The notes under the pieces were generated by a model. That model was not told the origin of the DNA, did not search any database, and was given only the letters and a program-made list of their open reading frames with translations. This document shows, one piece after another, positions 16,807 through 59,694 of a stretch of 64,000 nt of DNA. Source of the stretch: Escherichia phage Ec_Makalu_003; the sequence record MN882349.1; one strand, written 5' to 3'. How positions within the stretch are numbered: position 1 is the first letter of the stretch; each line of letters starts with the position of its first letter. Both the position numbers and the translations under genes were made by a program.

Positions 16807-17019
16807 TTATAATGCACCATCGAGCAATTGCTCTAAGGTGTATCCTGAATAGTCTTTTTCAATCAGGATATATTTTCCTACTCGTTTAATACAACCGCGC
16901 ATTTCAACGTATTCTGCGTAGTTGATGGTGCGAGTTGTTCCATCTTCTAGTAAAGCAGTACCGATTTCGTTAATGCGGTCATAAGTTACGTCGGTAATGA
17001 TGATTTCGATGTTAGCCAT
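16807..17019 (-). CDS. hypothetical protein, 70 aa
   Basis: ORF directly downstream of the PeSL promoter at 17050-17084. Confidence 0.45.
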   Translation of the reverse strand: MANIEIIITDVTYDRINEIGTALLEDGTTRTINYAEYVEMRGCIKRVGKYILIEKDYSGYTLEQLLDGAL

Positions 17020-17049
17020 TTGATACTCCTTAGTAGTTCGTTTCGGTAT

Positions 17050-17084
17050 GGGTGTATTATGATATACACCCTCTGTTATGTCAA
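17050..17084 (-). promoter_or_regulatory. early promoter with stem-loop (PeSL-like)
   Basis: minus strand reads TTGACA, then palindrome GGGTGTAT..ATACACCC around CATAAT, then conserved leader with AGGAG. Confidence 0.6.
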
Positions 17085-17090
17085 CAACTT

Positions 17091-17270
17091 TTAGAACATT
17101 TTTGAAATTAATTCTGCTTTGATTTCGCAGAGAACATCTAAAGATTTCTCGTCACCCGCTTTTGCTGCTTCTGCTTGCATTTTTGAAATGGCTTCAATGT
17201 CAGTGCAATTATAAGCCGCTTGAACTTTAGCGATTGCGATGATTGCCGATTCGATGGTTAAGTGTTTCAT
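17091..17270 (-). CDS. hypothetical protein, 59 aa
   Basis: ATG at 17270 preceded by AGGAGAATCAAAC; downstream of the PeSL at 17303. Confidence 0.4.
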   Translation of the reverse strand: MKHLTIESAIIAIAKVQAAYNCTDIEAISKMQAEAAKAGDEKSLDVLCEIKAELISKMF

Positions 17271-17302
17271 GTTTGATTCTCCTTTCGTTTCGGTATGTGT
17301 GC

Positions 17303-17331
17303 AGTATAGGGGATCGCCGATCCCCTGTCAA
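17303..17331 (-). promoter_or_regulatory. early promoter with stem-loop (PeSL)
   Basis: minus strand: TTGACA, 17-bp perfect palindrome GGGGATCGGCGATCCCC as the spacer, TATACT. Confidence 0.65.
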
Positions 17332-17338
17332 CAACTTT

Positions 17339-17857
17339 TTAGTTATTTTTTAATTGCTCATCTTGCAATAATGCAATCACATGCTGGCGATGTTCTTCCG
17401 ATTGAGGAACACCGAAAAAGTTTGTTTTGTAGAAATACTCTAATCGGTCTTCTCGTGTGCTCTCTTCCATCATGATCGCGGGTAGTCCAAGATTTCGGAA
17501 ACGTCGCTTTTCTGCTGGCGTAAAATCACTGTAATACAACATAGAATCATCATTACCAGCAATGCTAAACTCATCCTTCATAAAGGAGAATATTGCGTTT
17601 AAACGCTGTTTACCGTCCACGATTTCGATCTCATAGCGAGAGCCATCATCAATCTTAGCCATTGCGATAGCACCAACCGGAAAATCATTAATCAGGTTTT
17701 CGATAAACATACGTTTGTTTTCGGTGTCCCATACCAAAGGACGCTGATAATCTGGGTTCATGTTGATATAGCCATCTTCTAACCACGCCTCATAAACAGA
17801 GATGACAAAGTTTTTAGTATTGGTATAGTAACGGCGTTTAGGCGTTAAACGGTTCAT
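17339..17857 (-). CDS. DUF262 / ParB-like (DGQQR-type) domain protein
   Basis: motifs DYQRPLVWD and VDGKQRL; ATG at 17857 with AGGAGA inside the upstream gene end (track start 17893 is a TTG). Confidence 0.6.
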   Translation of the reverse strand: MNRLTPKRRYYTNTKNFVISVYEAWLEDGYINMNPDYQRPLVWDTENKRMFIENLINDFPVGAIAMAKIDDGSRYEIEIVDGKQRLNAIFSFMKDEFSIAGNDDSMLYYSDFTPAEKRRFRNLGLPAIMMEESTREDRLEYFYKTNFFGVPQSEEHRQHVIALLQDEQLKNN

Positions 17858-17858
17858 G

Positions 17859-18191
17859 TTATAGTCTCCTGAATGGATCATCACGTAAATCAATATCTTT
17901 TAAGAACTCATCCCATGAATGGCGGATAATGTTCTTAATTCTCCAGATAAGCGCAGGGATTGAACGCTCTCCCATCTGGAAGTAAGGATCATATGATCCA
18001 TATGCCCAATATGCTACTACAATTCCACAATCGGCGCAATAATATTCTATTTCACTTGCTGGCGACCAAAGTCCATCAATATGATCACGGATCTTGCTTT
18101 CGATGTTATGGCTATGGCAATCAGGGCAACGGATGCAATGACCTTGTTTATCGTAATTTGACGTTAGCGAATACTTAAACAATCTCATCAT
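17859..18191 (-). CDS. zinc-ribbon protein, 110 aa
   Basis: CIRCPDCHSH...YYCADCG; coupled to both neighbours. Confidence 0.5.
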   Translation of the reverse strand: MMRLFKYSLTSNYDKQGHCIRCPDCHSHNIESKIRDHIDGLWSPASEIEYYCADCGIVVAYWAYGSYDPYFQMGERSIPALIWRIKNIIRHSWDEFLKDIDLRDDPFRRL

Positions 18192-18904
18192 AGATCCTTA
18201 TTGGCTTCAAATACTGCCTTTGCGAATCCTCGCGGGGTAAGTGACCTGATAGTCTTTGTTCTGGTTCCTTTCCCGCCTAGCTTAGAATGCTGTTTACTGT
18301 ACCCTTTATTAATCTGCAACGGTTTCTTTTCTGGCATTATAAAGCCTTGTCCGGTCCATAAGCAAGTCTTTTTCGGGTACATATCACGGGCGGCAATATA
18401 CTCAGGAAACGTAGGATGCTTATCATCTTCCGGCAAATAACCGCCATATTCCCACGGATGGAACATGTAATCAGGCTTACGCCACATGCTAGAGATAACG
18501 CTTACAGGATTCTCTATCATGTAGGGAACTCCTAGCCATTCACCCAAATAAGCGGTTATTTTAGCTGCCCTTACATCATGAACTTGAATTAATGGTCCTT
18601 GTTCTCGTTTCTTTCGTTCAAAGTGCGCAGCGCCACTAACAGCTAAATTGGTGCATGGTGGGAATGCAAAGATAATATCCGGTTTCCCCCATTCAAGGTC
18701 CATTGCTCTTTCCAGCCAATTTAAATCAATCCATGTGTTTACATATGTAATGTTTGGATGTTCAAATCTGGTATTATATTTTTTGTATGTACCGTGGTCG
18801 CCATCGTCAGCATTAAAGCAGATCACCTTATGACCTGCTTTAGCCCATTCTAACCCCATTATCCCCGATCCGTCAAAGTTGCAGAATATTAATTTTTGTT
18901 TCAT
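18188..18904 (-). CDS. minimal C5-methyltransferase-fold protein
   Basis: motif I-like FCNFDGSGIMG, motif IV-like FAFPPCTNLAVSG, motif VI-like YMIENP; only 238 aa with no obvious target-recognition domain. Confidence 0.55.
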   Translation of the reverse strand: MKQKLIFCNFDGSGIMGLEWAKAGHKVICFNADDGDHGTYKKYNTRFEHPNITYVNTWIDLNWLERAMDLEWGKPDIIFAFPPCTNLAVSGAAHFERKKREQGPLIQVHDVRAAKITAYLGEWLGVPYMIENPVSVISSMWRKPDYMFHPWEYGGYLPEDDKHPTFPEYIAARDMYPKKTCLWTGQGFIMPEKKPLQINKGYSKQHSKLGGKGTRTKTIRSLTPRGFAKAVFEANKDL

Positions 18905-19146
18905 ATACGCCCCTTTAACCCAACACAGATTTTAGAAGGTTCTTTGCCGTGCCACATTAAGTAAATTCCGTTAATGCGTCCTTGTTTTGTATATGATTCT
19001 TTTCTGATCTTCTTATAGTGTCGTGCTTCCTCAGCCGATTGTTTAGAATGTCGATCATAAAGGAAGAGGAACAAAGGCCAACCATTAGCGGCCTTAATGC
19101 AGTTATTCAAAAATTCCTTATTTCGTTTAATTAATTTTCTTTTCAC
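18901..19146 (-). CDS. hypothetical basic protein, 81 aa
   Basis: ATGA-type overlap with both neighbours. Confidence 0.45.
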   Translation of the reverse strand: MKRKLIKRNKEFLNNCIKAANGWPLFLFLYDRHSKQSAEEARHYKKIRKESYTKQGRINGIYLMWHGKEPSKICVGLKGRI

Positions 19147-19394
19147 GCTGCCCCCATTGGTTTGATAGTAACAGAATCTAAAAGACCTTTGTTAGCCAGT
19201 TCGCGGCAAGTTTTCAGATCCGCAACTTCCCAGCCAGCCGCAATAAGGTTATCAATGAGGCTGTTAGCAACTTCTTCGCTCATGAAAGAGCACTGTTTGC
19301 CGATGGTGTAGCGTACACGCTGTAATTTCAGTTTACGGAAGCCTTTAACGTTCAGGTCTTTAGCGATTTTCTTTGCGGTTTCGATGTTAGCCAT
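19143..19394 (-). CDS. hypothetical protein, 83 aa
   Basis: first gene after the PeSL at 19435. Confidence 0.5.
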   Translation of the reverse strand: MANIETAKKIAKDLNVKGFRKLKLQRVRYTIGKQCSFMSEEVANSLIDNLIAAGWEVADLKTCRELANKGLLDSVTIKPMGAA

Positions 19395-19434
19395 TGTTTG
19401 ATTCTCCTAAGTGGTATCTCGTCTTGATGGTTGT

Positions 19435-19463
19435 ATTGTAGGGGAGTTATCCTCCCCTGTCAA
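19435..19463 (-). promoter_or_regulatory. early promoter with stem-loop (PeSL)
   Basis: TTGACA, spacer GGGGAGGATAACTCCCC, TACAAT. Confidence 0.6.
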
Positions 19464-19477
19464 CACTTTTTATAAAA

Positions 19478-19645
19478 TTATTTGTTAATTTCTGGTGCGT
19501 TGCTAGGATAGTAACCTTCTTTAACTCCGAGGTATTTTGCAACCATCCCTACAATCTTCTGTGCTACTACAATGTCAAATTTCAGATAATCTTCGCCGTG
19601 GGTTTCAATGATATATGCTTCACATGCTGCTTTAGTCTCGAACAT
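19478..19645 (-). CDS. small conserved protein, 55 aa (copy 1; paralogue at 22760..22927)
   Basis: MFETKAACEAYII...GVKEGYYPSNAPEINK; second copy differs by about ten amino acids, with additional synonymous differences. Confidence 0.55.
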   Translation of the reverse strand: MFETKAACEAYIIETHGEDYLKFDIVVAQKIVGMVAKYLGVKEGYYPSNAPEINK

Positions 19646-19678
19646 TTTGATTCTCCTATTTCGTTTCGGTATGTGTGT

Positions 19679-19707
19679 ATTATAGGGGATCTCCCGATCC
19701 CCGTCAA
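19679..19707 (-). promoter_or_regulatory. early promoter with stem-loop (PeSL)
   Basis: TTGACG, spacer GGGATCGGGAGATCCCC, TATAAT. Confidence 0.6.
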
Positions 19708-19721
19708 CAACTTTTTTAAAA

Positions 19722-20003
19722 TTATTCGTGATTAGTTTCGATATTGTGCATTTTGCACCAGTTCAGCCAATCGCCAAGATCTTGATAGTTGATGCTTTTA
19801 TCTGCTGCCATCGTTTTTGTCTTGATACCCATATGTGCGTTATGAGTAAGCATTTTTACAGTGAACTCAATTTTATCGCCTTTAGCTTTAACATCAACCA
19901 GTTTGGTCCACTGGCTACCAGCACCGCGAATGTTCATACCAACGATGTTTCCGATGTATGCTTCTTTGTTGTTCAGGATTTCGGTTGCTTTGATGAATTT
20001 CAT
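19722..20003 (-). CDS. hypothetical protein, 93 aa
   Basis: ORF after a PeSL-family promoter. Confidence 0.5.
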   Translation of the reverse strand: MKFIKATEILNNKEAYIGNIVGMNIRGAGSQWTKLVDVKAKGDKIEFTVKMLTHNAHMGIKTKTMAADKSINYQDLGDWLNWCKMHNIETNHE

Positions 20004-20036
20004 TTTTGATTCTCCAGTTCGTTTCGGTATGGGTGT

Positions 20037-20065
20037 ATTATGCTATGTTCTTACTTTGGTGTCAA
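20037..20065 (-). promoter_or_regulatory. early promoter, PeSL family with degenerate stem
   Basis: TTGACA, 17 nt, CATAAT, conserved leader. Confidence 0.5.
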
Positions 20066-20073
20066 CAACTTTT

Positions 20074-20343
20074 TTAGATATTTTCAGAAATAAATTTTAA
20101 AACTTGACGTAAATGTTTCTCATCTTTGATAGTCGCCGGAAGTTCTTCTTTTACTTCCTGTGCAAGATAGATATTTCCGTTCCAAGTGAAAGACCCGTCT
20201 TCGTTTACGCGATAGCTGAACATCCATTCGCAATCATTTTCGATTTCATATACACACAGAAGGGTGTAATCTTCAAAGCTATTGATTTCAAGGTCGAAGC
20301 CGTGGCGTTTTGCAAAGTTGGTAGTGGTTTTAGTCAGTGCCAT
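20074..20343 (-). CDS. hypothetical protein, 89 aa
   Basis: ORF after a PeSL-family promoter. Confidence 0.5.
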   Translation of the reverse strand: MALTKTTTNFAKRHGFDLEINSFEDYTLLCVYEIENDCEWMFSYRVNEDGSFTWNGNIYLAQEVKEELPATIKDEKHLRQVLKFISENI

Positions 20344-20383
20344 TGTTTGATTCTCCTAAGTGGTATCTCGTTTCGATGGGTGT

Positions 20384-20412
20384 ATTATGCTATAGGCGTG
20401 ATCAGGTGTCAA
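20384..20412 (-). promoter_or_regulatory. early promoter, PeSL family
   Basis: TTGACA, 17 nt containing TGATCA, CATAAT. Confidence 0.5.
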
Positions 20413-20469
20413 TGCCTTTTTTAAAATTTTATGCAATAAAAAAGCCGACACTAAGGTCGGCTAATAAAA

Positions 20470-20778
20470 TCATTTAGACAAATAATCATTCAGTGCAATC
20501 CGGTCGGCATGTTCCGGCGTTACATCAATCGCAATCACTTTAACGCGTGCTTTCTTGCGACCTGGGTTTTCTCGTAACCAGTGCTCATGACCGTGAACAT
20601 TTTTATACTGCGATGCTTCTTCGAAGGTACGGATCGGACCAGGGTAATCAGCGTAAAGGATCTCTAGGTCATCGGTGATGTAAAAATATACGTTGTAATT
20701 ACTGTTCTCTAGCTTAAGCAGAGACTTTCGGAACATTGGGAGATTTTCGCGGGTAAATTCAAAAGTAATATCTTTCAT
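20470..20778 (-). CDS. HxH-HW family protein A, 102 aa
   Basis: ATG at 20778 with GAGGA; motifs YFYITDD, HGHEHWL, VIAIDV. Confidence 0.5.
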   Translation of the reverse strand: MKDITFEFTRENLPMFRKSLLKLENSNYNVYFYITDDLEILYADYPGPIRTFEEASQYKNVHGHEHWLRENPGRKKARVKVIAIDVTPEHADRIALNDYLSK

Positions 20779-20827
20779 AGTATTATCCTCAATAGTTGGA
20801 TGAAAAGGGGGCTTAACGCCCCATATA

Positions 20828-21115
20828 TTAAAACAGTCCTTCCTGTACACCGTAGTAGAGTTCGTCGCTGATAATTTCATTAATGCGACGGTGTGCATAT
20901 TCCTGATTTGCGAAGTTGTCAGCAAGTTCTACTTTAGTTTCACCGTCATGAGTCCATTTAGTGATAACTTTACCATCTGCAAATTTGAAGTTGAACTCTT
21001 TAGCTACTGCATCGCGTACCAGACGTGCGAACTTGTTGTTACGGATTGCATTATCGGTTTCGTGTGCAGCGTGAGCAAATTTGTTAACTTTCAGAGTGAT
21101 AGTGATGTATGCCAT
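20828..21115 (-). CDS. hypothetical protein, 95 aa
   Basis: ORF followed by hairpin ggggcttaacgcccc and a T-run. Confidence 0.5.
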   Translation of the reverse strand: MAYITITLKVNKFAHAAHETDNAIRNNKFARLVRDAVAKEFNFKFADGKVITKWTHDGETKVELADNFANQEYAHRRINEIISDELYYGVQEGLF

Positions 21116-21161
21116 AATTTGATTCTCCTAGTTAGAAAGTGTATCTCGTTTCGATGGGTGT

Positions 21162-21190
21162 ATTATGCTATACACCCGATCTTATGTCAA
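21162..21190 (-). promoter_or_regulatory. early promoter with stem-loop (PeSL)
   Basis: TTGACA, then GGGTGTAT/ATACACCC inverted repeat flanking CATAAT. Confidence 0.55.
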
Positions 21191-21197
21191 CACTTTT

Positions 21198-21476
21198 TTA
21201 TAAAATAATTTTTTGATATTTTTCTATGATGTTTGTGTAATCCACATCAACCGCTATCACCGTTGCTTCGAATCCACCGTTTAGCCAATGGCTATGGTCA
21301 TGATCGTGAAAGAAACCAAGACCAGTACGAAGACCTTCTTTATATTCGGCGCGTACATTTAGATCATCATCGATAAACAGATAAAACCATGAATTTTTAC
21401 TAGGATTGATGATACAACCTTTCAGATTAGGGAGAATATCACGACTAAGAATAAACTTATCACCTACTTTGAACAT
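21198..21476 (-). CDS. HxH-HW family protein B, 92 aa
   Basis: ATG at 21476 with GTGAGGA; motifs FYLFIDDD, HDHDHSHWL, VIAVDV. Confidence 0.5.
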   Translation of the reverse strand: MFKVGDKFILSRDILPNLKGCIINPSKNSWFYLFIDDDLNVRAEYKEGLRTGLGFFHDHDHSHWLNGGFEATVIAVDVDYTNIIEKYQKIIL

Positions 21477-21480
21477 AATA

Positions 21481-21801
21481 TTAGTCCTCACTTATAAGGT
21501 CAAACCAATTGTTTTTCGCATAATGCTTAATGCGTGCTTGATCTGCTTCCGCTGGTGATAGATTCCATGCAACCACTACAACTTCTGACGCGTCGTCATC
21601 CGTTTCTGATACCCAATGATTGTGATTCATACAGTTATTTGCGATCGAGTGAGCAAATGATTTCATCACTGGAGACGTATAATCATAGTAACGGATTTTC
21701 AGATTTTCATCAACATACAAGTAGATCGTATAAGGTTTATATTCAGTAACCAGTAACAGACAGTTACGCAATTCTGGGAAAATCTTTTTAGTTAATTTCA
21801 T
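21481..21801 (-). CDS. HxH-HW family protein C, 106 aa
   Basis: ATG at 21801 with GAGGA; motifs IYLYVDEN, NHNHWV, VVVVAWN. Confidence 0.45.
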   Translation of the reverse strand: MKLTKKIFPELRNCLLLVTEYKPYTIYLYVDENLKIRYYDYTSPVMKSFAHSIANNCMNHNHWVSETDDDASEVVVVAWNLSPAEADQARIKHYAKNNWFDLISED

Positions 21802-21802
21802 T

Positions 21803-22021
21803 TTATAATCCTCGGTCGCGGCTATAGTACACGGTACGCCATACAATTTCATGTTTCGTGTCGCTCCAGCACACGATCTCATTTACTCTTAAATCTTTGT
21901 TATCAACAAAAGATGAACATTGTGACGCTTCTTTCATCATTTTATCTGCTGTTTTCTCATCAAATACAGCACAGATTTCTTTATACACTCGATAATCTTT
22001 GAATTGACTCTGGATACCCAT
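21803..22021 (-). CDS. small protein, about 72 aa (paralogue of 21981..22238)
   Basis: QFKDYRVYKEICAVFDEKTADKMMKEASQCSSF vs KFKDYKAYQQILRVYDAEFAEKMMEDASKCPSF. Confidence 0.45.
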   Translation of the reverse strand: MGIQSQFKDYRVYKEICAVFDEKTADKMMKEASQCSSFVDNKDLRVNEIVCWSDTKHEIVWRTVYYSRDRGL

Positions 22022-22238
22022 AATTAACACCATTCCAACCAATTGTTTTTGAGAAAACGTTTATCCACTGTTGAGTGTAGCATGTTTCTTTCCATGATAC
22101 AATACGAGTAGAATAATGGTTTTTGTTTCCAGAAAAGGACGGGCATTTTGATGCATCTTCCATCATCTTTTCGGCGAACTCCGCGTCATATACCCGCAGG
22201 ATCTGTTGATATGCTTTATAATCTTTAAATTTGCTCAT
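21981..22238 (-). CDS. small protein, 85 aa (paralogue of 21803..22021)
   Basis: tandem paralogue overlapping the next gene in another frame. Confidence 0.45.
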   Translation of the reverse strand: MSKFKDYKAYQQILRVYDAEFAEKMMEDASKCPSFSGNKNHYSTRIVSWKETCYTQQWINVFSKTIGWNGVNYGYPESIQRLSSV

Positions 22239-22503
22239 AATTGTTAACTACCTTATCAGCTTCTTTTATTGTTTTTACATCAACTGCGATAATCCGTAAA
22301 GGTTCGTCGAAGGTCCACCAGTGGTCATGAATATCAGCTTGTGATTTATCACCAAAGGAATCACGAATATCATTTTTACATTTATAGCTAATATGGCCTT
22401 CATAGTCAACATAAAGGTAATTATCGAAAATCGGAGTTTTTAAGATCATACCGAAAAATCTTTCTTTGTGTGTCTTATCAAGTGTTGCAGTAATTCGCAT
22501 CAT
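22225..22503 (-). CDS. HxH-HW family protein D, 92 aa
   Basis: motifs YLYVDYEG, IHDHWW, IIAVDV. Confidence 0.5.
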   Translation of the reverse strand: MMRITATLDKTHKERFFGMILKTPIFDNYLYVDYEGHISYKCKNDIRDSFGDKSQADIHDHWWTFDEPLRIIAVDVKTIKEADKVVNNYEQI

Positions 22504-22515
22504 AATATATTCCTC

Positions 22516-22695
22516 TTAGAAAGGGATGGTCATTTCTTGAGCTTGTACATTCTCGTTAGGATTAAACTTCATCCAACCGATATTGTCTACCAGCATATGT
22601 ACATTTTTATCATATCCTACGTGAGTAGTCAACACTAAATGTGCTTTACCTTCAACGATGATTTCCATGTACTTCTGAACTTCGATAGCTTTCAT
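22516..22695 (-). CDS. hypothetical protein, 59 aa
   Basis: ATG at 22695 after the conserved leader GGAGAATCAAA. Confidence 0.35.
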   Translation of the reverse strand: MKAIEVQKYMEIIVEGKAHLVLTTHVGYDKNVHMLVDNIGWMKFNPNENVQAQEMTIPF

Positions 22696-22721
22696 TTTGA
22701 TTCTCCGTTTGTTGTCTTGAT

Positions 22722-22756
22722 GGGAGTATCTTACTACTCCCTTTAATCATTGTCAA
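22722..22756 (-). promoter_or_regulatory. early promoter with stem-loop (PeSL)
   Basis: TTGACA followed by palindrome GGGAGTAGTAAGATACTCCC. Confidence 0.55.
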
Positions 22757-22759
22757 CTA

Positions 22760-22927
22760 TTATTTGTTAATTTCTGGTGCGTTGCTCGGATAGTAACCTT
22801 CTTTAACACCCAGATATTTTGCAACCATTCCGGTGATCTTCTGTGCTACTACGATATCGAATTTCAGGTAGTCTTCACCGTGGTTTGCTACAATGTATGC
22901 TTCGCATTCTGCTTTAGTCTGGAACAT
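22760..22927 (-). CDS. small conserved protein, 55 aa (copy 2; paralogue of 19478..19645)
   Basis: MFQTKAECEAYIV...GVKEGYYPSNAPEINK. Confidence 0.55.
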   Translation of the reverse strand: MFQTKAECEAYIVANHGEDYLKFDIVVAQKITGMVAKYLGVKEGYYPSNAPEINK

Positions 22928-22961
22928 TTTTGATTCTCCTATATCTCGTTGGTATGTGTGC

Positions 22962-22990
22962 ATTATAGGGGATCACCGATCCCCTGTCAA
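22962..22990 (-). promoter_or_regulatory. early promoter with stem-loop (PeSL)
   Basis: TTGACA, spacer GGGGATCGGTGATCCCC, TATAAT. Confidence 0.65.
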
Positions 22991-22995
22991 CAACT

Positions 22996-23289
22996 TTATA
23001 ATGCTTTATACGCGTATTTCATAAATTTGTCTGCCACTTCATTGGCATGTTCAGATTCTACGCCTGATTCGAGAACAATAGCTAGGTCGGTTTCGTCATT
23101 CCCGCCGTACCAATGATTTGATGTTCGATTTTTTTCAATTGGAAATTGGTCACTTTTATCTGTGCGACAAAATACATCTAAATGCTCGTCGATGTAAAAG
23201 ATCCAATCTTCATAAAGAATAACGGTATTAGCAAGATTTTTATTGCCTTCAACGAAAGGTTCCGCGACAAATAGCTTAGTTTGTTCCAT
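22996..23289 (-). CDS. HxH-HW family-like protein F, 97 aa
   Basis: ATG at 23289 with GAGGA; FYIDEHLDV...SNHWYGG; weakest family member. Confidence 0.4.
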   Translation of the reverse strand: MEQTKLFVAEPFVEGNKNLANTVILYEDWIFYIDEHLDVFCRTDKSDQFPIEKNRTSNHWYGGNDETDLAIVLESGVESEHANEVADKFMKYAYKAL

Positions 23290-23305
23290 AGTAATTTCCT
23301 CAAAA

Positions 23306-23497
23306 TTATACAGTTTCGTAAACTTCCCAATGTTCAGCGCCAACACGCTTAACGAAAAGGTTTTCTTTGATGTTATTCATAAACGTCTGGATGGATTTAA
23401 TGCGGTTTGAAGGTTTCCATTCTTCGTTGGCATTGCGTCGATACATCATAACATTACCAGTTCGCTTATATTCAGCAACCATTTTAAGACCACACAT
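23306..23497 (-). CDS. hypothetical protein, 63 aa
   Basis: ORF between family members. Confidence 0.4.
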   Translation of the reverse strand: MCGLKMVAEYKRTGNVMMYRRNANEEWKPSNRIKSIQTFMNNIKENLFVKRVGAEHWEVYETV

Positions 23498-23554
23498 AAT
23501 ATTATCCTCAATTTGTGGGAGAGTATTACCCCTCCCAATGATTGTTATGTTATA

Positions 23555-23875
23555 TCACACAAAATGGCGTGTCAATGCTTCTTTTGCGGTTCCGCTAAGA
23601 CTTTCAATCTCGCCTGGCATAACATCAACCGCCAGAACTTCTACAACATCTTCGGACCCTAACCAGTGAGTATGGCCTTTGTAGAACTTGATAACCAGAC
23701 CACCTTCCTCGTCCCATTTAACGCTATCGCTAGCCCACCACACATCACCGTCGATAAAGTTGATGTAAAGCACACTACGCCACATTGAATTAATTACTTT
23801 CAATACTGCGCCTTTCATCTCTTCCACGGTATGGTCTTCCATTTTGAAGACCTCACCTACCTGAACTTTTGCCAT
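23555..23875 (-). CDS. HxH-HW family protein E, 106 aa
   Basis: motifs LYINFIDGD, KGHTHWL, VLAVDV. Confidence 0.5.
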   Translation of the reverse strand: MAKVQVGEVFKMEDHTVEEMKGAVLKVINSMWRSVLYINFIDGDVWWASDSVKWDEEGGLVIKFYKGHTHWLGSEDVVEVLAVDVMPGEIESLSGTAKEALTRHFV

Positions 23876-23892
23876 TTAGTCACCTCTCTTTA

Positions 23893-24072
23893 TTACATAA
23901 CAATCACGCCAGCCGTTGAAAGTTGATGTTTCAACTGAGCATTTTCTGCTACTGTCAAATCAATGATTTCTTGTGACGCTGCAATCATATAACCATTGGT
24001 GATATTGTTTTGCATCAGTTCAATGGTTTCTTCGTTGTAGCGGATTTTAGCGATGATTTCGTTGAAGTTCAT
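23893..24072 (-). CDS. hypothetical protein, 59 aa
   Basis: ATG at 24072 downstream of the PeSL at 24107. Confidence 0.4.
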   Translation of the reverse strand: MNFNEIIAKIRYNEETIELMQNNITNGYMIAASQEIIDLTVAENAQLKHQLSTAGVIVM

Positions 24073-24106
24073 AATTGATTCTCCTAGTTCGTTTCGGTAT
24101 GTGTGC

Positions 24107-24135
24107 AGTATAGGGGATCGCCGATCCCCTGTCAA
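24107..24135 (-). promoter_or_regulatory. early promoter with stem-loop (PeSL)
   Basis: identical to the 17303-17331 element: TTGACA, GGGGATCGGCGATCCCC, TATACT. Confidence 0.65.
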
Positions 24136-24148
24136 CAACTTTTTTGAA

Positions 24149-31930: not shown

Positions 31931-31965
31931 CTTGATACTCCTTAGTAAGTTAGTTTCGTTTCGAT

Positions 31966-32001
31966 GGGGGGTATATTACTACTCCCGTGATATGCTGTCA
32001 A
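31966..32001 (-). promoter_or_regulatory. early promoter with stem-loop (PeSL)
   Basis: TTGACA followed by imperfect palindrome GGGAGTAGTAATATACCCCC. Confidence 0.55.
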
Positions 32002-32009
32002 TTGCTTTT

Positions 32010-32159
32010 TTATGCAACCGCAAACATCAACATTTGAACATTCTTGGCTGTCTGGCTTTCAAAGTTCTGACATTCTTTGATAATGTCCTCTACTTTCTCG
32101 CCAGAGATCTCCGCGTAAGTTTCGATTGCCATTTTCAGTACCGCGTCAAAGTTGTTCAT
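32010..32159 (-). CDS. hypothetical protein, 49 aa
   Basis: ATG at 32159 after a conserved leader. Confidence 0.3.
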   Translation of the reverse strand: MNNFDAVLKMAIETYAEISGEKVEDIIKECQNFESQTAKNVQMLMFAVA

Positions 32160-32191
32160 TTGGTTCTCCTTAAAGTGTATTTCGTTTCGAT

Positions 32192-32226
32192 GGGGGTATA
32201 TTACTACCCCCGTTATTCAGTGTCAA
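32192..32226 (-). promoter_or_regulatory. early promoter with stem-loop (PeSL)
   Basis: TTGACA followed by perfect palindrome GGGGGTAGTAATATACCCCC. Confidence 0.6.
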
Positions 32227-32445
32227 CTACTTTTTAATGACAAGTTCGAATTTTGCTACCTTGCGTCCTCGTTTATTGAAAGCAACCCACGGACGGTTTT
32301 CAATGTAGAACAATTCTTCACCAATAATGAATATTGGCTGATTGTAAAGGCGACCCATCAGGTCACGTTGGCGAATAGTAGTAGATTCGTATACTTCGCC
32401 TACTACAAAGTGTTTGCTGATAGAGTCGGTGCAAGTAAATTTCAT
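32227..32445 (-). CDS. small protein, 72 aa (paralogue of 59488..59694)
   Basis: shared C-terminal NKRGRKVAKFELVIKK vs TKRNGDPVAKFEIIK. Confidence 0.5.
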   Translation of the reverse strand: MKFTCTDSISKHFVVGEVYESTTIRQRDLMGRLYNQPIFIIGEELFYIENRPWVAFNKRGRKVAKFELVIKK

Positions 32446-32472
32446 TTTGATTCTCCTTTGTTTCGTTTCGAT

Positions 32473-32507
32473 GGGAGTATCTTACAACTCCCAATATTCA
32501 GTGTCAA
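32473..32507 (-). promoter_or_regulatory. early promoter with stem-loop (PeSL)
   Basis: TTGACA followed by palindrome GGGAGTTGTAAGATACTCCC. Confidence 0.6.
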
Positions 32508-32514
32508 CTGCTTT

Positions 32515-32733
32515 TTACTTGTTGTATTCATTCCACCAACGAGTAAGTTTATCGATTATTTTTGTGTTTCTATCCAATTTCTCCCACCGTTTACGCGGGT
32601 TTATAAGCCGGAATAGGTAGGGTGTACTTGTTAAGTGAACTCGGTCAAAATAATGGTTGATAAGCTGGCATTCAATTCTCAATTTCATCTTTTTACGATG
32701 AAAATATGCAATCACTTGTTCTTCTGTTTCCAT
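32515..32733 (-). CDS. hypothetical protein, 72 aa
   Basis: ORF after a PeSL-family promoter. Confidence 0.45.
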   Translation of the reverse strand: METEEQVIAYFHRKKMKLRIECQLINHYFDRVHLTSTPYLFRLINPRKRWEKLDRNTKIIDKLTRWWNEYNK

Positions 32734-32757
32734 ATGTTCCTCCGTTTCGATGCGTGC

Positions 32758-32786
32758 ATTATGCTATACCCCGGTCCGATTGTCAA
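32758..32786 (-). promoter_or_regulatory. early promoter, PeSL family with degenerate stem
   Basis: TTGACA, 17 nt, CATAAT. Confidence 0.5.
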
Positions 32787-32833
32787 CACCCAATAACAAA
32801 AAAGTCGCCACTATGGGCGACTTAGGTTAAACA

Positions 32834-34990: not shown

Positions 34991-35021
34991 AATAAAATCC
35001 TCATTTGTTTTTGATGGTTGC

Positions 35022-35050
35022 AGTATAGCGGGGATTTCTCCCCGCGTCAA
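35022..35050 (-). promoter_or_regulatory. early promoter with stem-loop (PeSL)
   Basis: TTGACG, spacer CGGGGAGAAATCCCCGC, TATACT. Confidence 0.6.
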
Positions 35051-35058
35051 CACTTATT

Positions 35059-37302
35059 TTACAGTTTGCAAGATGAACATTCGCTAGCGTCTTCCGTACC
35101 ATCAGCACCATCACGCACGTTAGCGTAATACAGTGTCTTGAGGCCGTAATATTGAGCAAACAGCATATCATCTAACACATCAGCAATATCGACTTTACCA
35201 GTCTTATAAGTGCTTGGATCATAGGATGTATTGGAACTGATCGCCTGATCTACAAACTTCTGCATGATCGCTGCCAGTGTCAGATAAGGTTTGTTACCCT
35301 TCTTGATCAGTGTCCAAAGCAGGTCAATAACATCAGCATTATTCTCTACGTTCGGAATAACCTGATTAAATTGCCCTTCTTTCGATCCTTTAACCGATAC
35401 AATCCCGCGAGGCGGTTCTATTCCATTGGTGCTATTAGATACCTGAGAAGACGACTCACAAGGCATCAGCGCCGATAGTGTACTGTTACGAATGCCATAT
35501 TTTTTCAGGTCTTCGCGCAGTTCTTCCCAATCCATTTCATACACCGGGTCAACCAGTTCATCTACTGTCTTTTTGTACCAGTCAATAGGAAGTTCACCGC
35601 GACCATAACGTGTTTCGTGCATCAGTTCGCAAGCGCCCTTCTCTTTTGCTAGCTGCACACTAGCTTTAATCAGAGCATATTGCAAGCGTTCAAACGTTTT
35701 ATGCGTAAACTCGTTAGCGTCTTCATATGTGAAGAAATTATCCGCCAGATATGATGCAAAGTTAGTCACACCAACACCCAGAGAGCGACGTTTTTTGGCT
35801 GTCAGTGCTTGTTCTACAGGATAATCCTGGTAATCTAACAAGTTGTCAAGCGCACGCACCATAACCATAGCGATCCGCTCTACTTCTTCCATATTTTCGA
35901 TATCGAAATTACCTAAAACATATGCTGCCAAAGTACACAGAGCAATTTCGGAGTCATCATGCCCCATTGGTTTAGTAGGCAGTGCAATTTCACAACACAG
36001 GTTAGATTGTTTAATCGGTGCTACATTACGAATAAACGCCCCGTGATTGTTCATGTTGTCTGTGAACGCTGGATAGATTCGACCAGTGTTAAAACGTTCA
36101 ATTGCCACCGCTAAAAACAGGTCTTCGGCTTTAACACGAGTTTTACGAACACTCGGATCTTTTTCCAGTTTTTCATAAAGCTGGCGGAATCCTTCCTCAT
36201 CTCGGAAGTACAGATCCCACAACAAGCCACCCGCAACATCTGGACTAAACAGAGTAATGTAATCACGTTTAAGGAATCGCTCTACCATCAGGTTATTAAT
36301 CTGTACGCCGTAATCAAGATGACGAATGCGGTTATCTTCTACCCCTTTGTTGTTCTTCAACACAATAAGACTTTCAAACTCTAAATGCCACATTGGGTAA
36401 TAGAGAGTCGCCGCCCCGCCACGAATACCGCCTTGTGAGCATGACTTAACGGCAGTCTGAAAATGCTTCCAGAATGGGATAACGCCAGTATGACGAACTT
36501 CACCATGCCCGATCTTAGATCCTTCCGCGCGAATCATACCAGCATTGATACCGATACCAGCACGCTTACTAATATACTTGATGATTGCATTTGCTGTTTC
36601 GTTGATGCCCTGCAATGAGTCATCACTTTCAATCACCACACACGAACTAAATTGTCGTGTTGGAGTACGCACACCAGCCATAATCGGAGTAGGCAGAGAA
36701 ATTTGCTTATTCGCAACAGCATTATAAAAATCAATCACATGTTCGAGTCGATTTTCTGTCTCTTCTTGATGTAAACACATACCGATCAGCATATACGCAA
36801 ATTGCGGTGTTTCAATGATTTTCTTAGTGCTGCGATCCTGAACAAGATATTTCTCTTTTAACTGCATCGCACCAGCATAGGTCATTTTAAAGTCAAGTTT
36901 ATGGTCGATGAATTTCTCCAGATATTCCACTTCTTCACGGGAATACTTTTGCAGAATTTCGCGATCATATTTTCCGGTTGCAATATTACGCTCAATATGG
37001 CTGTAAAAATCAATAGGTTGGAATTGACCGTATACTGATTTACGAAGCGCGAACATTGCAAGGTTACTTGCTACATATTGATAATCAGGCGTTTCTACCG
37101 TGATGTTATCTGCGGCGACCTTAATCAATACTTTCTGGATATCGTTGGTAGACATACCTTCTGTCAGAAGTGGTTCAACCATATCAAACAATTCATATGG
37201 ATCAACGTTATGACCTTCGGCTGCCGCTTCCAGAATTTTCATTACTTTTTCTTTTTCAAACGGAACAGTCAGACCGGAAGACTTAACAACATTTTTAATC
37301 AT
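35059..37302 (-). CDS. nrdA: ribonucleotide reductase large subunit
   Basis: 747 aa; N-terminal ATP-cone-like region and catalytic Cys/Glu-rich core typical of class Ia NrdA. Confidence 0.9.
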   Translation of the reverse strand: MIKNVVKSSGLTVPFEKEKVMKILEAAAEGHNVDPYELFDMVEPLLTEGMSTNDIQKVLIKVAADNITVETPDYQYVASNLAMFALRKSVYGQFQPIDFYSHIERNIATGKYDREILQKYSREEVEYLEKFIDHKLDFKMTYAGAMQLKEKYLVQDRSTKKIIETPQFAYMLIGMCLHQEETENRLEHVIDFYNAVANKQISLPTPIMAGVRTPTRQFSSCVVIESDDSLQGINETANAIIKYISKRAGIGINAGMIRAEGSKIGHGEVRHTGVIPFWKHFQTAVKSCSQGGIRGGAATLYYPMWHLEFESLIVLKNNKGVEDNRIRHLDYGVQINNLMVERFLKRDYITLFSPDVAGGLLWDLYFRDEEGFRQLYEKLEKDPSVRKTRVKAEDLFLAVAIERFNTGRIYPAFTDNMNNHGAFIRNVAPIKQSNLCCEIALPTKPMGHDDSEIALCTLAAYVLGNFDIENMEEVERIAMVMVRALDNLLDYQDYPVEQALTAKKRRSLGVGVTNFASYLADNFFTYEDANEFTHKTFERLQYALIKASVQLAKEKGACELMHETRYGRGELPIDWYKKTVDELVDPVYEMDWEELREDLKKYGIRNSTLSALMPCESSSQVSNSTNGIEPPRGIVSVKGSKEGQFNQVIPNVENNADVIDLLWTLIKKGNKPYLTLAAIMQKFVDQAISSNTSYDPSTYKTGKVDIADVLDDMLFAQYYGLKTLYYANVRDGADGTEDASECSSCKL

Positions 37303-40134: not shown

Positions 40135-40165
40135 AATATAATCCTCTCTTTGTTTCGATGTTTGT

Positions 40166-40193
40166 ATTATACATCATCTGTATTCGGTGTCAA
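40166..40193 (-). promoter_or_regulatory. early promoter, PeSL family without a clear stem
   Basis: TTGACA, 16 nt, TATAAT. Confidence 0.5.
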
Positions 40194-40519
40194 CCTTTTT
40201 GTTCCATGAAAAGCGGTGCTGTTTCTTCTTTCAGTTTAATAACTAGCGCGGAAACTTCATCAAGAAAATCTTTTTCCATATGAGCAAGCATTGATTTAGA
40301 ATCTTTGATGACTTTCAAAGAATATTCACTTAGATTTCCTTTTCCTAACAATAATGCAGGATACACACTATGTGGGATCTCGATTTCATGATATTCGCTC
40401 ATAGTATAATATTTGTGAATTTTTAAATCTATATTTCTTCGTTGTACGTCCACATCAGCAATGACATACAGAAGTTCGATTTTATCACTTTTCTGGGAAA
40501 GGGTAGCATTCAAAAACAT
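40190..40519 (-). CDS. hypothetical protein, 109 aa
   Basis: ATG at 40519 preceded by GGAGGA. Confidence 0.5.
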   Translation of the reverse strand: MFLNATLSQKSDKIELLYVIADVDVQRRNIDLKIHKYYTMSEYHEIEIPHSVYPALLLGKGNLSEYSLKVIKDSKSMLAHMEKDFLDEVSALVIKLKEETAPLFMEQKG

Positions 40520-40549
40520 TGTTAATCCTCCGTTGTTTCGATGTGTGGT

Positions 40550-40577
40550 ATTATACATTACCGCGCCAGAATGTCAA
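40550..40577 (-). promoter_or_regulatory. early promoter, PeSL family
   Basis: TTGACA, 16 nt, TATAAT. Confidence 0.5.
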
Positions 40578-40638
40578 TATATTTTTCATAAAAATTTAGG
40601 CAATAAAAAGCCTCCCCGAAGGAAGGCTTTAAAATTCA

Positions 40639-57892: not shown

Positions 57893-57920
57893 AATATATT
57901 CCTCAATGTCTTGTCTTGAT

Positions 57921-57955
57921 GGGAGTATCTTACTACTCCCTTAATCCGGTGTCAA
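57921..57955 (-). promoter_or_regulatory. early promoter with stem-loop (PeSL)
   Basis: TTGACA followed by palindrome GGGAGTAGTAAGATACTCCC, same stem as the 22722 element. Confidence 0.6.
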
Positions 57956-57962
57956 CTACTTT

Positions 57963-58118
57963 TTAAATTTCTTCTACAGTAAAGTCTTCAATGTTGTTGT
58001 GCTCGGAGAACGTTGCCAGACCAGCATTCCATGCATCATCCTCAGAGAAGAATACACCGTAACGTTCATATCCTTTAGCGCCTTCAAATTTAATCATTAA
58101 TTTGTGAGTATGTTTCAT
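57963..58118 (-). CDS. hypothetical protein, 51 aa
   Basis: ATG at 58118 after the conserved leader. Confidence 0.35.
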   Translation of the reverse strand: MKHTHKLMIKFEGAKGYERYGVFFSEDDAWNAGLATFSEHNNIEDFTVEEI

Positions 58119-58149
58119 TTTGATTCTCCATCGTTGTCTTGATGAGTTT

Positions 58150-58178
58150 AGTATAGGGGATCACCGATCCCCTGTCAA
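58150..58178 (-). promoter_or_regulatory. early promoter with stem-loop (PeSL)
   Basis: TTGACA, spacer GGGGATCGGTGATCCCC, TATACT. Confidence 0.65.
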
Positions 58179-58187
58179 CAACTATTT

Positions 58188-58400
58188 TTAATTTTTACCC
58201 ACGCGTAAATTAATGCGCATTTTCTGCATAGCCATGATCTGGTTTACTGCTTCTTCTTTACGCTCTTTCGTGATAATGTGACCAGATTCCGCAAACGCTC
58301 CCGCAACTTCTTCTACGATCTCGCGAACTTGAGAACGTCCAAAGATGCGATTTCCTTCGTAGCTCATAAACTCGGTTACTACTTGCTCAATAGATTTCAT
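58188..58400 (-). CDS. hypothetical protein, 70 aa
   Basis: ORF after a PeSL. Confidence 0.45.
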   Translation of the reverse strand: MKSIEQVVTEFMSYEGNRIFGRSQVREIVEEVAGAFAESGHIITKERKEEAVNQIMAMQKMRINLRVGKN

Positions 58401-58427
58401 GTGATTCTCCTTCTTTCGTTTCGGTGT

Positions 58428-58462
58428 GGGAGTATGTTAATACTCCCGTTTCTTTACATCAA
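58428..58462 (-). promoter_or_regulatory. early promoter with stem-loop (PeSL variant)
   Basis: TTGATG followed by perfect palindrome GGGAGTATTAACATACTCCC. Confidence 0.55.
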
Positions 58463-58469
58463 CCAGTTT

Positions 58470-58712
58470 TTAGAAATTTTTCGCTTCTTCTTCGGTCATC
58501 ATAACCGCGCATTCGTGCATAACTTTGAAAACCGGATCAATCATGTCGAATGCCTCGCGAGACAATTTACGAGAAGCGATTTTGATTGCTTCAACGTCTT
58601 CTACTACAGGAACAAAAACAGTTTTCAGTTCATCGAGCACAGCAGCTTCTTTTTCATTCAGGAAGATTCCAGCGTCGTACAGTGCAACTTCGATAACATT
58701 AACTTTAACCAT
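58470..58712 (-). CDS. hypothetical protein, 80 aa
   Basis: ATG at 58712. Confidence 0.45.
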   Translation of the reverse strand: MVKVNVIEVALYDAGIFLNEKEAAVLDELKTVFVPVVEDVEAIKIASRKLSREAFDMIDPVFKVMHECAVMMTEEEAKNF

Positions 58713-58746
58713 TTTTATTTCCTCCAGTTCGTTTCGGTATGTGAGT

Positions 58747-58775
58747 ATAATACTACCGATGACCTTTGGCGTCAA
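58747..58775 (-). promoter_or_regulatory. early promoter, PeSL family with degenerate stem
   Basis: TTGACG, 17 nt, TATTAT. Confidence 0.5.
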
Positions 58776-58976
58776 CTAGTTTTTGTTATTTTCGTGAAAA
58801 TTTTTCGTCGCCTCATGTGCTTTTCGCTGGGCTTCTTGTTGTGCTTGCTGGCGTGCTGCCTCTTGTGAAGCCATAACGGAAGCATTTGCAGCAGTTACAG
58901 CCGCTACCATCGCTGCGGTATTAGCATTTACAGTACATGCACTAGCCAGCAAAGCAATTGCAATCATTTTCTTCAT
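58776..58976 (-). CDS. small secreted protein, 66 aa
   Basis: signal peptide MKKMIAIALLASACTVNA; Ala/Gln-rich mature part. Confidence 0.45.
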   Translation of the reverse strand: MKKMIAIALLASACTVNANTAAMVAAVTAANASVMASQEAARQQAQQEAQRKAHEATKNFHENNKN

Positions 58977-59158
58977 AGTTTCCCCTTTAGGTTATCTTCG
59001 ACCTTCATCCATTCCGCGTATTCTTGCGCAGCTACTTTCGGATTTAGTCCGTCTTCGTACATTGCATCGAGTAATTCTTCGTCGGTGGGCTTATACCCTA
59101 GATAAGCCTCCACCTGATTTTTCCAAATTTTATACCAGTTCATATTATCACCAATCAA
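58973..59158 (-). CDS. hypothetical protein, 61 aa
   Basis: coupled to neighbours. Confidence 0.4.
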   Translation of the reverse strand: MIGDNMNWYKIWKNQVEAYLGYKPTDEELLDAMYEDGLNPKVAAQEYAEWMKVEDNLKGKL

Positions 59159-59420
59159 GAGCGCGTGTCTCTGCGTCTTCCCATGCTTGATCCATTACAG
59201 CCTTAAAAACATACTCTAAGGTATCATCTTTAGAGAATCCGAAGACTTTAGACGGAATATCTTCGATTGCCACTCCCGCAACTTCTGCATTACGCGCTTG
59301 GCAATAATGCAACTCTAAGTTATCGAGATAGCGACCGCCTAATTTCTCCATATCGTCCCAACATTTCCAATAACCGACTTTATCGGCAATTGCTAACACT
59401 TTGCTGTTTTTGTTGCTCAT
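59148..59420 (-). CDS. hypothetical protein, 90 aa
   Basis: ORF after the PeSL at 59446. Confidence 0.45.
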   Translation of the reverse strand: MSNKNSKVLAIADKVGYWKCWDDMEKLGGRYLDNLELHYCQARNAEVAGVAIEDIPSKVFGFSKDDTLEYVFKAVMDQAWEDAETRALDW

Positions 59421-59445
59421 CTTTGATTCTCCTTTTGTTTGGTGT

Positions 59446-59481
59446 GGGGAGTATTTTACTACTCCCTTGTTCTGGTGTCAA
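59446..59481 (-). promoter_or_regulatory. early promoter with stem-loop (PeSL)
   Basis: TTGACA followed by palindrome GGGAGTAGTAAAATACTCCCC. Confidence 0.55.
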
Positions 59482-59487
59482 TAGACT

Positions 59488-59694
59488 TTATTTGATTATT
59501 TCAAATTTTGCTACCGGATCACCATTTCGTTTGGTTGCAGTAAGTTGTTGCTTGTCAAAGTAAAACCAAATATAGTCACCATGAACTACATCAAATGTAT
59601 TTCCGCTATTGTCCGTGAATGCATCAACATCATAATCACACCCGACACTAAAGCTATAATTGATGTGGTCGGTTTCAATGCAACGTACTTTCAT
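59488..59694 (-). CDS. small protein, 68 aa (paralogue of 32227..32445)
   Basis: ATG at 59694; C-terminal TKRNGDPVAKFEIIK. Confidence 0.45.
   Translation of the reverse strand: MKVRCIETDHINYSFSVGCDYDVDAFTDNSGNTFDVVHGDYIWFYFDKQQLTATKRNGDPVAKFEIIK

Follow-up and report, generated by a model that had tools for sequence, protein, structure and literature searches.

What are the promoter-like repeats that recur, with their GC-rich palindromes, on the minus strand between alt and gene 30 of Escherichia phage Ec_Makalu_003, and how much do they have to do with the variable small genes lying between them? The question arises from a 64,000-nucleotide (nt) stretch of this genome (sequence record MN882349.1), called the window throughout, in which an earlier note, made from the letters alone, had singled out a block at 17050-24135 and likened its repeats to the promoter-early stem-loops (PeSLs) of phages of the RB49 group. 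Identity, location and architecture all agree with that comparison, and we put at about 0.9 the probability that the repeated units are PeSLs, which are composite regulatory cassettes of T4-like phages in the RB49 group. Such elements are already known and were characterised in this very locus of sister genomes; nothing here is new in kind.

The window belongs to a Krischvirus (RB49 group), the closest match being Escherichia phage Ec_Makalu_001 at 99.5% identity. The 7.2-kilobase (kb) block is matched by 63 phage records, nearly all of them Krischvirus, and is collinear with the region from open reading frame (ORF) 185 to ORF212 of phi1 and RB49. The array extends from about 16,780, at the terminator after ORF185, to about 24,160, which makes the bounds first given for it slightly too narrow; its placing between alt and gene 30 is right, except that the immediate left neighbour is the HNH-type ORF212 and not gene 30 itself. 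The limits of the block are as follows.

14688-16739, minus strand: alt, one flank of the block
16785-16801, minus strand: terminator-like hairpin with T-tract, closing the array in front of alt
24149-24625: ORF212, HNH-type (Pfam HNH), directly in front of gene 30, the other flank
24618-26120: gene 30 ligase, beyond ORF212

Between these limits a regular-expression scan and sequence inspection found ten complete minus-strand units, each with 17 nt of spacer, whose -35 boxes start at 24135, 22990, 22756, 21190, 20412, 20065, 19707, 19463, 17331 and 17084. The order of parts is an A-rich tract, TTGACA, the spacer, a -10 box, a conserved leader, GGAGAATCAA and ATG. In the alignment the A-rich tract preceding TTGACA is a conserved (T)AAAAAGTTG, and the ORFs upstream have their stop codons 5-25 nt before this tract or TTGACA. 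Nine copies match the sigma-70 consensus at 11 or more of its 12 positions and the tenth (22756) at 10, with TATAAT, TATACT, CATAAT, TACAAT and TAAGAT as -10 boxes. The leaders are A/C-rich and conserved (ACACATACCGAAACGA, ACCCATCGAAACGAGATAC or ACTCCCATCAAGACAA) and end in GGAGAATCAA, 0-5 nt and ATG in nine of the ten copies, the 17084 copy having GGAGTATCAAATG. One 17-mer, GGGGATCGGCGATCCCC, occurs exactly at 17309-17325 and at 24113-24129 on the minus strand, with 0 occurrences expected by chance, and differs by one mismatch from relatives at 22968-22984 and 58156-58172; its inverted repeat is interrupted, with 7-nt arms round a non-symmetric 3-nt centre, and its plus-strand reading has one mismatch. 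The earlier claim of at least ten minus-strand copies of one architecture is therefore borne out, with some amendments of detail: the 17-mer stands at both of the positions claimed for it without being the perfect palindrome it was called, three -10 boxes occur besides the two that had been named (TATAAT and TATACT), and the leader ending ascribed to the copies generally is a different one in one copy. The ten units, with folding free energies (dG) in kcal/mol, are these.

24074..24147, minus strand: PeSL between ORF212 and ORF209; spacer-class hairpin GGGGATCGGCGATCCCC, dG -12.0, z -5.1, profile expectation value (E) 3.8e-17
22928..23001, minus strand: PeSL206/205; spacer-class hairpin GGGGATCGGTGATCCCC, TTGACA-17-TATAAT, 12/12 consensus
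22695..22767, minus strand: PeSL205/204; hairpin GGGAGTA...TACTCCC enclosing the -10 box TAAGAT, dG -10.4
21117..21203, minus strand: PeSL199/198; hairpin GGGTGTAT...ATACACCC enclosing the -10 box CATAAT, dG -12.4
20346..20425, minus strand: PeSL197/194; promoter and leader, no internal hairpin, the terminator at 20443-20462 just upstream
20004..20076, minus strand: PeSL194/193; promoter and leader, no detectable hairpin, dG -0.5
19645..19720, minus strand: PeSL193/191 (phi1 topology, no ORF192); spacer-class hairpin GGGGATC-GGGA-GATCCCC
19396..19476, minus strand: PeSL191/190; spacer-class hairpin GGGGAG-GATAA-CTCCCC, dG -17.9, z -9.8, heading the five-gene cassette ORF190-ORF187
17271..17342, minus strand: PeSL187/186; palindrome identical to that of the 24135 copy
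17018..17096, minus strand: PeSL186/185; hairpin GGGTGTAT...ATACACCC enclosing the -10 box CATAAT, dG -10.6

The 24135 and 17331 copies share about 57 nt of uninterrupted identity.

PeSLs were described by Arbiol, Comeau, Kutateladze, Adamia and Krisch (2010, Genome Biol Evol 2:140; PMC2839356), who counted 52 copies in phi1 and 51 in RB49. As defined there, they consist of a sigma-70 consensus promoter, an AT-rich upstream region containing the stop codon of the preceding gene, a stem-loop, often polyG/polyC, which falls into five positional subclasses, with the spacer and the -10 box as its commonest places, and, at the 3′ end, the next gene's Shine-Dalgarno sequence and start codon. All of these sequence-level features are found in the block copies. 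PeSLs are also scored at these intergenic positions in phi1 and RB49, promoters are annotated at the equivalent intergenic positions of GEC-3S, and the 22990 copy has a 41-nt core identical to that of RB49 PeSL206/205. Architecture and orthology are read directly from the genomes compared here. Promoter activity, attenuation by one spacer-class hairpin and the formation of mini-circles come from the literature only (PMC2839356): the PeSLs tested there, 193/192, 206/205 and 211/210, are all from the region equivalent to the block; PeSL206/205 acted as a strong promoter in a reporter, at about 13,000 Miller units; the hairpin of PeSL211/210, alone between promoter and lacZ, gave an attenuation about equal to that of rrnB T1; and inverse polymerase chain reaction detected mini-circles of ORF192 and ORF210, with crossovers inside the flanking PeSLs at variable positions.

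The element recurs elsewhere in the window. With an nhmmer profile of the ten block copies, after one iteration, we obtain 23 hits at E <= 1.5e-5, none of them on the plus strand (ten in the block, five at 31.9-35.1 kb, two at 40.1-40.6 kb and six at 57.9-59.8 kb), and all 23 terminate at an ATG opening an ORF of 49-252 amino acids (aa). The earlier note had proposed a scan of this kind, and its estimate of about 23 copies, its cluster positions and its statement that each copy precedes small ORFs all come out of it unchanged. The number is a lower bound, as the profile misses degenerate PeSLs, such as the published RB49 PeSL193/192 (5820-5884 of the fetched RB49 sequence), which has TTTGAA as its -35 box and escapes detection at E < 1e-3. 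The copies outside the block are the following.

31932..32798, minus strand: four PeSL copies in the ORF225-229 region upstream of nrdB, with -35 boxes at 32001, 32226, 32507 and 32786
34999..35061, minus strand: PeSL copy in the nrdA/nrdB inter-region; spacer hairpin CGGGGAGAAATCCCCG, dG -15.4
40137..40588, minus strand: two weaker copies, with -35 boxes at 40193 and 40577, a 16-nt spacer, no strong hairpin and E about 1e-5
57898..59768, minus strand: six PeSL copies in the ORF261-267 variable region, with -35 boxes at 57955, 58178, about 58463, 58775, 59481 and 59756

The clusters occupy hyperplastic regions (alt-gene 30, denA-nrdB, the frd region and ORF261-267). Neither their number nor their strand resembles chance: the window holds 29 near-consensus sigma-70 promoters (at least 11 of 12 positions) on the minus strand and one on the plus strand, against 3.0 +/- 1.7 on both strands together in dinucleotide shuffles. 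A loose promoter scan gave no overall enrichment (31 vs 25.1), the enrichment being limited to near-consensus sites. Several near-consensus minus-strand promoters also lie in or beside conserved replication genes (41671, 42443, 42991, 43491, 44033 and 44590), where they carry no PeSL leader. The Rfam 15 covariance models, run on 16500-24500, returned a single sub-threshold chance hit and nothing real. The exact spacer-class motif occurs in none of 185,579 bacterial and archaeal genomes and, in IMG/VR, is confined to 2 contigs, one of about 150 and one of about 165 kb, and we see no sign of the element outside phage genomes of such size (about 150-165 kb).

The hairpins themselves are well above chance, with dG between -10 and -18 kcal/mol and z between -3 and -10 against shuffles in eight of the ten block copies. 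Five of them fill the spacer (24135, 22990, 19707, 19463 and 17331) and three enclose the -10 box, which then lies in the loop (22756, 21190 and 17084), these two positions being the ones that Arbiol et al. call commonest; at the 20412 copy the hairpin sits upstream of the A-rich tract, as the canonical terminator at 20443-20462. Across 18 genomes the loops vary freely and the stems are kept, in at least seven different sequences, with pairing retained in 98-99% of alignment cells and three compensated pairs, which probably stem from two or three events and support pairing, though weakly if taken alone. At PeSL199/198, for instance, GGGTGTAT/ATACACCC is replaced by the doubly compensated GGGGATAT/ATATCCCC in GEC-3S, RB49 and KFS-EC. 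A single structure for all -10-enclosing copies was rejected, as two registers exist, and their alignment was split into A2 and A3.

What lies between the PeSLs can be followed through the genus. The cargo of the block occupies one interval.

16807..24072, minus strand: 23 small genes, equivalent to ORF185-ORF209, arranged as ten PeSL-headed cassettes in the order [209-206], [205], [204-199], [198-197], [194], [193], [191], [190-187], [186], [185]

The corresponding region was fetched from 17 relatives, its PeSLs were located by profile and the inter-PeSL segments were clustered, which for the window gives the cassette string A-B-C-D-E-F-B'-G-H-I. Chaining of BLAST matches dropped high-scoring segment pairs overlapping by more than 60 nt at PeSL or paralogue repeats (in Makalu_001, GEC-3S, phi1, FL04 and Cognac), and at these places the cassette map and junction alignments were used instead. 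Among the 17 relatives whole units are directly seen to come and go: ORF211 (cassette K), ORF210 (J), ORF195/196 (L), ORF192, ORF191 (B'), ORF186 (H) and the ORF190-187 operon. The ORF210 cassette is absent from the window, Makalu_002, JK32 and UPWr_E1; an ORF192-type insertion stands at the PeSL193/191 position in RB49, G2494, MIZ6 and JSE; MIZ4 lacks the contiguous run from ORF191 through ORF186, with the five-gene operon ORF190-187 included; and FL04 and Cognac lack five consecutive cassettes, the deletion joining the paralogous ORF205 and ORF191 cassettes. These two genes are duplicates (ORF191 at 19477-19648 and ORF205 at 22759-22930; 89% identical in aa and 86% in nt over 172 nt). A spacer-class PeSL heads each of them, and recombination between the two copies accounts for the five-cassette deletion.

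The junctions left behind are chimeric. In KFS-EC, where ORF186 is deleted, the 5′ part of PeSL187/186 is joined to the leader of PeSL186/185. The window's own 24135 copy is a single chimeric PeSL, combining the upstream flank seen in Makalu_001 PeSL212/210 with the leader of PeSL210/209, at the place where relatives carry the ORF210 cassette and sometimes that of ORF211 as well. The crossover position varies, the switch lying near the Shine-Dalgarno sequence and ATG in Cognac and between the -35 box and the loop in FL04, a pattern that suits general homologous recombination and not an enzyme of the site-specific kind. Junction homology amounts to 42-75 nt at PeSLs against 3-17 nt at other insertions and deletions (indels), and eight of 17 indel end points fall in PeSLs, which make up 10.4% of the block (P = 1.4e-4 vs random position). 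Beside the 24135 junction, the 3′ end of ORF212 (24149-24260) matches Makalu_002 at 100% and Makalu_001 at 92% identity, whereas on its right the block matches Makalu_001 at 99.5%. Since this switch coincides with the PeSL at 24135, the window has the look of a mosaic of both lineages.

Both the breakpoints and the hairpins supply points that weigh against this reading of the units. As to the breakpoints, seven of the ten PeSL-bearing gene boundaries were used as indel end points, and so were seven of the 13 that carry no PeSL (Fisher P = 0.67). The enrichment of end points in PeSLs could partly reflect the survival of those indels that respect gene boundaries, and about six kinds of indel lie inside cassettes, free of any PeSL, among them these.

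17858: 178-nt insertion
18904-19129: ORF189.1 deletion, in JSE, JK32 and UPWr_E1
22019: replacements ending here
23304-23495: ORF207 replacement or deletion, the deletion in UPWr_E1
23874: 265-nt insertion

The deletions of ORF189.1 (18888-19146) and ORF207 (23303-23497) show a junction overlap of only 16-17 nt, at translational-coupling sites. As PeSL-free boundaries are used alike and indels also occur within cassettes, PeSLs are not required for variation. The outcome named in the earlier note as a refutation, related genomes with no variation at cassette boundaries, is not what we see: whole PeSL-bounded cassettes differ, with chimeric junctions, although not all indels fall at PeSLs. The comparative data support PeSLs as good recombination substrates and do not show them to be the main driver of variation, a result that agrees with the ten of 14 differential ORFans reported as contiguous to a PeSL (PMC2839356).

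These breakpoints give the strongest of the alternatives its due. According to it, the units would be no more than strong early promoters with a shared leader, alike through duplication and selection for expression, which mark cassette boundaries and do not drive rearrangement, indels being seen at them only because events respecting gene boundaries survive. The near-equal use of boundaries with and without PeSLs speaks for it, and so do the recurrent indels inside operons, with their 3-17 nt of junction homology, as in the ORF189.1 deletion, the ORF207 replacement and the 23874 insertion. It is harder to reconcile with PeSL junctions formed as clean chimeras, in which the crossover falls within 15-60 nt of shared PeSL sequence and the overlap is 42-75 nt, with multi-cassette deletions that join two distant PeSL or paralogue copies, and with the published mini-circle joints, which fall in PeSLs (PMC2839356). 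We consider this alternative unlikely on balance, and PeSLs may well be a cause, and not merely the site, of some of the rearrangements.

As to the hairpins, the GC-rich palindrome claimed for every copy is found in eight of the ten, and the 20412 and 20065 copies have none inside the promoter. The hairpins of the PeSLs are not followed by a U-tract, their tails being ATACTGCA, ATCAAG and similar, and the terminator scan called none of them as a rho-independent terminator on the sense strand. The two strands are equally stable (-13.1 vs -13.3 kcal/mol; folding energy and G.U counts in 55 distinct cores, P = 0.22), in a test which is in any case unable to tell a role in RNA from one in DNA. A terminator role in RNA is therefore unproven by sequence alone. 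The same scan did call canonical structures elsewhere in the block.

20443-20462, minus strand: canonical intrinsic terminator, hairpin with T-tract, after ORF197, annotated in relatives as well
20808-20822, minus strand: canonical terminator-like hairpin GGGGCGTTAAGCCCC with T-tract, between ORF198 and ORF197

It could accordingly be argued that the hairpin is more than, or other than, an RNA terminator, and that the GGGG...CCCC inverted repeat acts at the DNA level, as a part of the promoter, as the site of a dimeric protein (one that represses early promoters or serves in recombination), as a cruciform or supercoiling element, or as a Dam-sensitive switch (GGGGATC...GATCCCC). Were this so, such a switch could tune or shut off the early promoters, or nucleate recombination. 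The position of the hairpin, which is fixed relative to the hexamers, exactly filling the 17-nt spacer or exactly enclosing the -10 box, would suit this proposal, as would the missing U-tract and the equal stability of the strands, and a stem-binding protein was a speculation of the original authors too (PMC2839356). GATC, the Dam site, is moreover 3.3-fold enriched in the -35 to -10 stretches of the 23 cores (12 sites in 667 nt, where the window as a whole has 0.0054 per nt), counts that are not independent, since the copies are paralogous; most of the sites come from the GGGGATC...GATCCCC stem, which places two of them in one spacer (e.g., cores 24107-24135 and 17303-17331), so that the enrichment goes back to one stem type common to paralogous copies. 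The stems, in their seven or more sequences with variable loops and compensatory changes, indicate that pairing is kept rather than one recognised sequence, one spacer-class hairpin attenuated a reporter when placed alone between promoter and lacZ (PMC2839356), and the crossover points vary, unlike those of site-specific recombination. A switch at the DNA level seems to us, in consequence, rather improbable.

That the units mark where a mobile element ends, or make up a site-specific, integron-like cassette system served by a recombinase of its own, is very hard to believe in spite of cassettes that act as units of insertion and deletion, the reported circular intermediates and the integron analogy drawn by the original authors themselves (PMC2839356), given that Pfam detects no integrase, transposase or recombinase domain among the ten block proteins scanned (the remaining small ORFs were not in the scan), that the junction alignments show neither a fixed crossover site nor target-site duplications or terminal inverted repeats, and that the exact motif is missing from the cellular genomes searched. 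Two other candidates were discarded: a CRISPR-like or tandem-repeat array, as the units are promoters at irregular, gene-determined spacing, and a miniature inverted-repeat transposable element or transposon, for want of terminal inverted repeats, target-site duplications and a transposase.

Taken as PeSLs, the units would work as follows. The near-consensus sigma-70 promoter and its A-rich upstream tract would be read by unmodified host RNA polymerase right after infection, an early timing that we infer, and the transcript, with its short, unstructured A/C-rich leader, strong GGAG Shine-Dalgarno sequence and ATG, would express one to six small early genes. Lying upstream of the start site of its own promoter, the hairpin would be transcribed only by polymerases arriving from the upstream cassette, in whose transcript it might attenuate or terminate read-through, or stabilise the 3′ end, so that cassettes would be transcriptionally insulated from each other; the -10-enclosing hairpins, too, may terminate. 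As direct repeats of about 75-90 nt, with identity up to about 57 nt, the copies would also allow the general homologous recombination of the phage to cross over between them, thereby deleting, duplicating or swapping whole cassettes and leaving one chimeric PeSL behind.

Few concrete mechanisms at the sequence level have been proposed for how large lytic phages shuffle their genes as modules. PeSLs are one of them, and here is a natural genome that carries exactly the predicted excision product of the ORF210 cassette, the mini-circle of which was detected experimentally in 2010. The map of cassettes over 17 genomes shows the reach of the model, in the gain and loss of whole cassettes with chimeric junctions, as well as its limit, in that indels independent of PeSLs occur at a comparable rate at gene boundaries inside operons. 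In annotation, each of the 23 sites can be given the label of early promoter and cassette boundary.

Besides the complete units the block holds a degenerate variant.

23497..23575, minus strand: degenerate variant before ORF207; TTGACA-17-TAACAT, hairpin GGGAG...CTCCC downstream of the -10 box, leader TTGAGGATAATATTATG

A second repeated leader, TTGAGGATAATAYTATG, lies ahead of ORF197 and ORF207 on the minus strand, at 20779-20830 and 23498-23545, where a GC hairpin (GGGGCGTTAAGCCCC or GGGAG...CTCCC), and not directly a consensus promoter, precedes it; GAGGA-type leaders related to it follow the PeSLs at 57955, 35050 and 40193. Outside the block, the interval that separates alt from the next ADP-ribosyltransferase gene has, at 14630-14670 (minus strand), a TTGACT-17-TATACT promoter overlapped by a hairpin of -18 kcal/mol, which a T-tract follows; this true terminator-plus-promoter overlap is near-identical in 14 of the fetched relatives and barely detected by the PeSL profile.

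Little can be said of the cargo by homology, six of the ten block proteins scanned being without a Pfam match. The five-gene cassette at 17339-19394 (minus strand) encodes ORF187, a GmrSD_N/DUF262 protein (Pfam E 4e-20), ORF188, with a zinc-ribbon (weak, below the Pfam cut-off), a 238-aa protein annotated as C-5 cytosine methyltransferase in relatives and without a Pfam hit here, and two small ORFs. At 20470-23875 (minus strand) lies a set of small paralogues with a C-terminal HxHW...(V/I)IA(V/I)DV, namely ORF197, 199, 200 and 208, related by BLASTP, and ORF203, recognised by eye; none of its scanned members has a Pfam match. ORF201 and ORF202 are overlapping paralogues (43% aa).

Compared with known systems, the units are like rho-independent terminators in placing a GC-rich hairpin at the 3′ end of the gene before them, and unlike them in that the hairpins of PeSLs have no U-tract, the canonical hairpins with T-tract being separate in the block (20443-20462, 20808-20822 and 16785-16801). 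With integron cassettes (attC and IntI) they have in common small, mostly single-gene cassettes in a unidirectional array and reported circular intermediates; unlike integrons, they have a promoter per cassette and variable crossovers, and neither an integrase nor an attC-type site is found here. Morons (Hendrix et al. 2000) and the linkers of Botstein and Campbell resemble them as autonomous units with their own promoter and terminator, and as conserved linkers that permit module exchange, respectively. Morons, however, have no repeated conserved sequence to bound them and are thought to arise by illegitimate recombination, whereas here the regulatory unit itself is the repeat. Closer are the PeSL-like elements of T4/PST and KVP40/nt-1 (Comeau, Arbiol and Krisch 2014; PMC4122927) and those at the internal-protein loci of T-even phages, which are also composite promoter-terminator repeats, also flank variable genes of hyperplastic regions and have also been proposed as recombination linkers; according to those authors, the T-even elements are analogues with T4-type early promoters and weaker, AT-rich stems, whereas the copies described here have sigma-70 consensus promoters and G/C stems. 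The PeSLs of phi1 and RB49, finally, belong to the same genus and the same ORF185-ORF212 region, and agree in components and cassette behaviour, several cores being identical base for base. From these the units of Ec_Makalu_003 do not differ in kind; the genome has its own complement of cassettes, without ORF192, ORF195/196, ORF210 and ORF211, and in its 212/209 PeSL the palindrome is that of the 187/186 copy.

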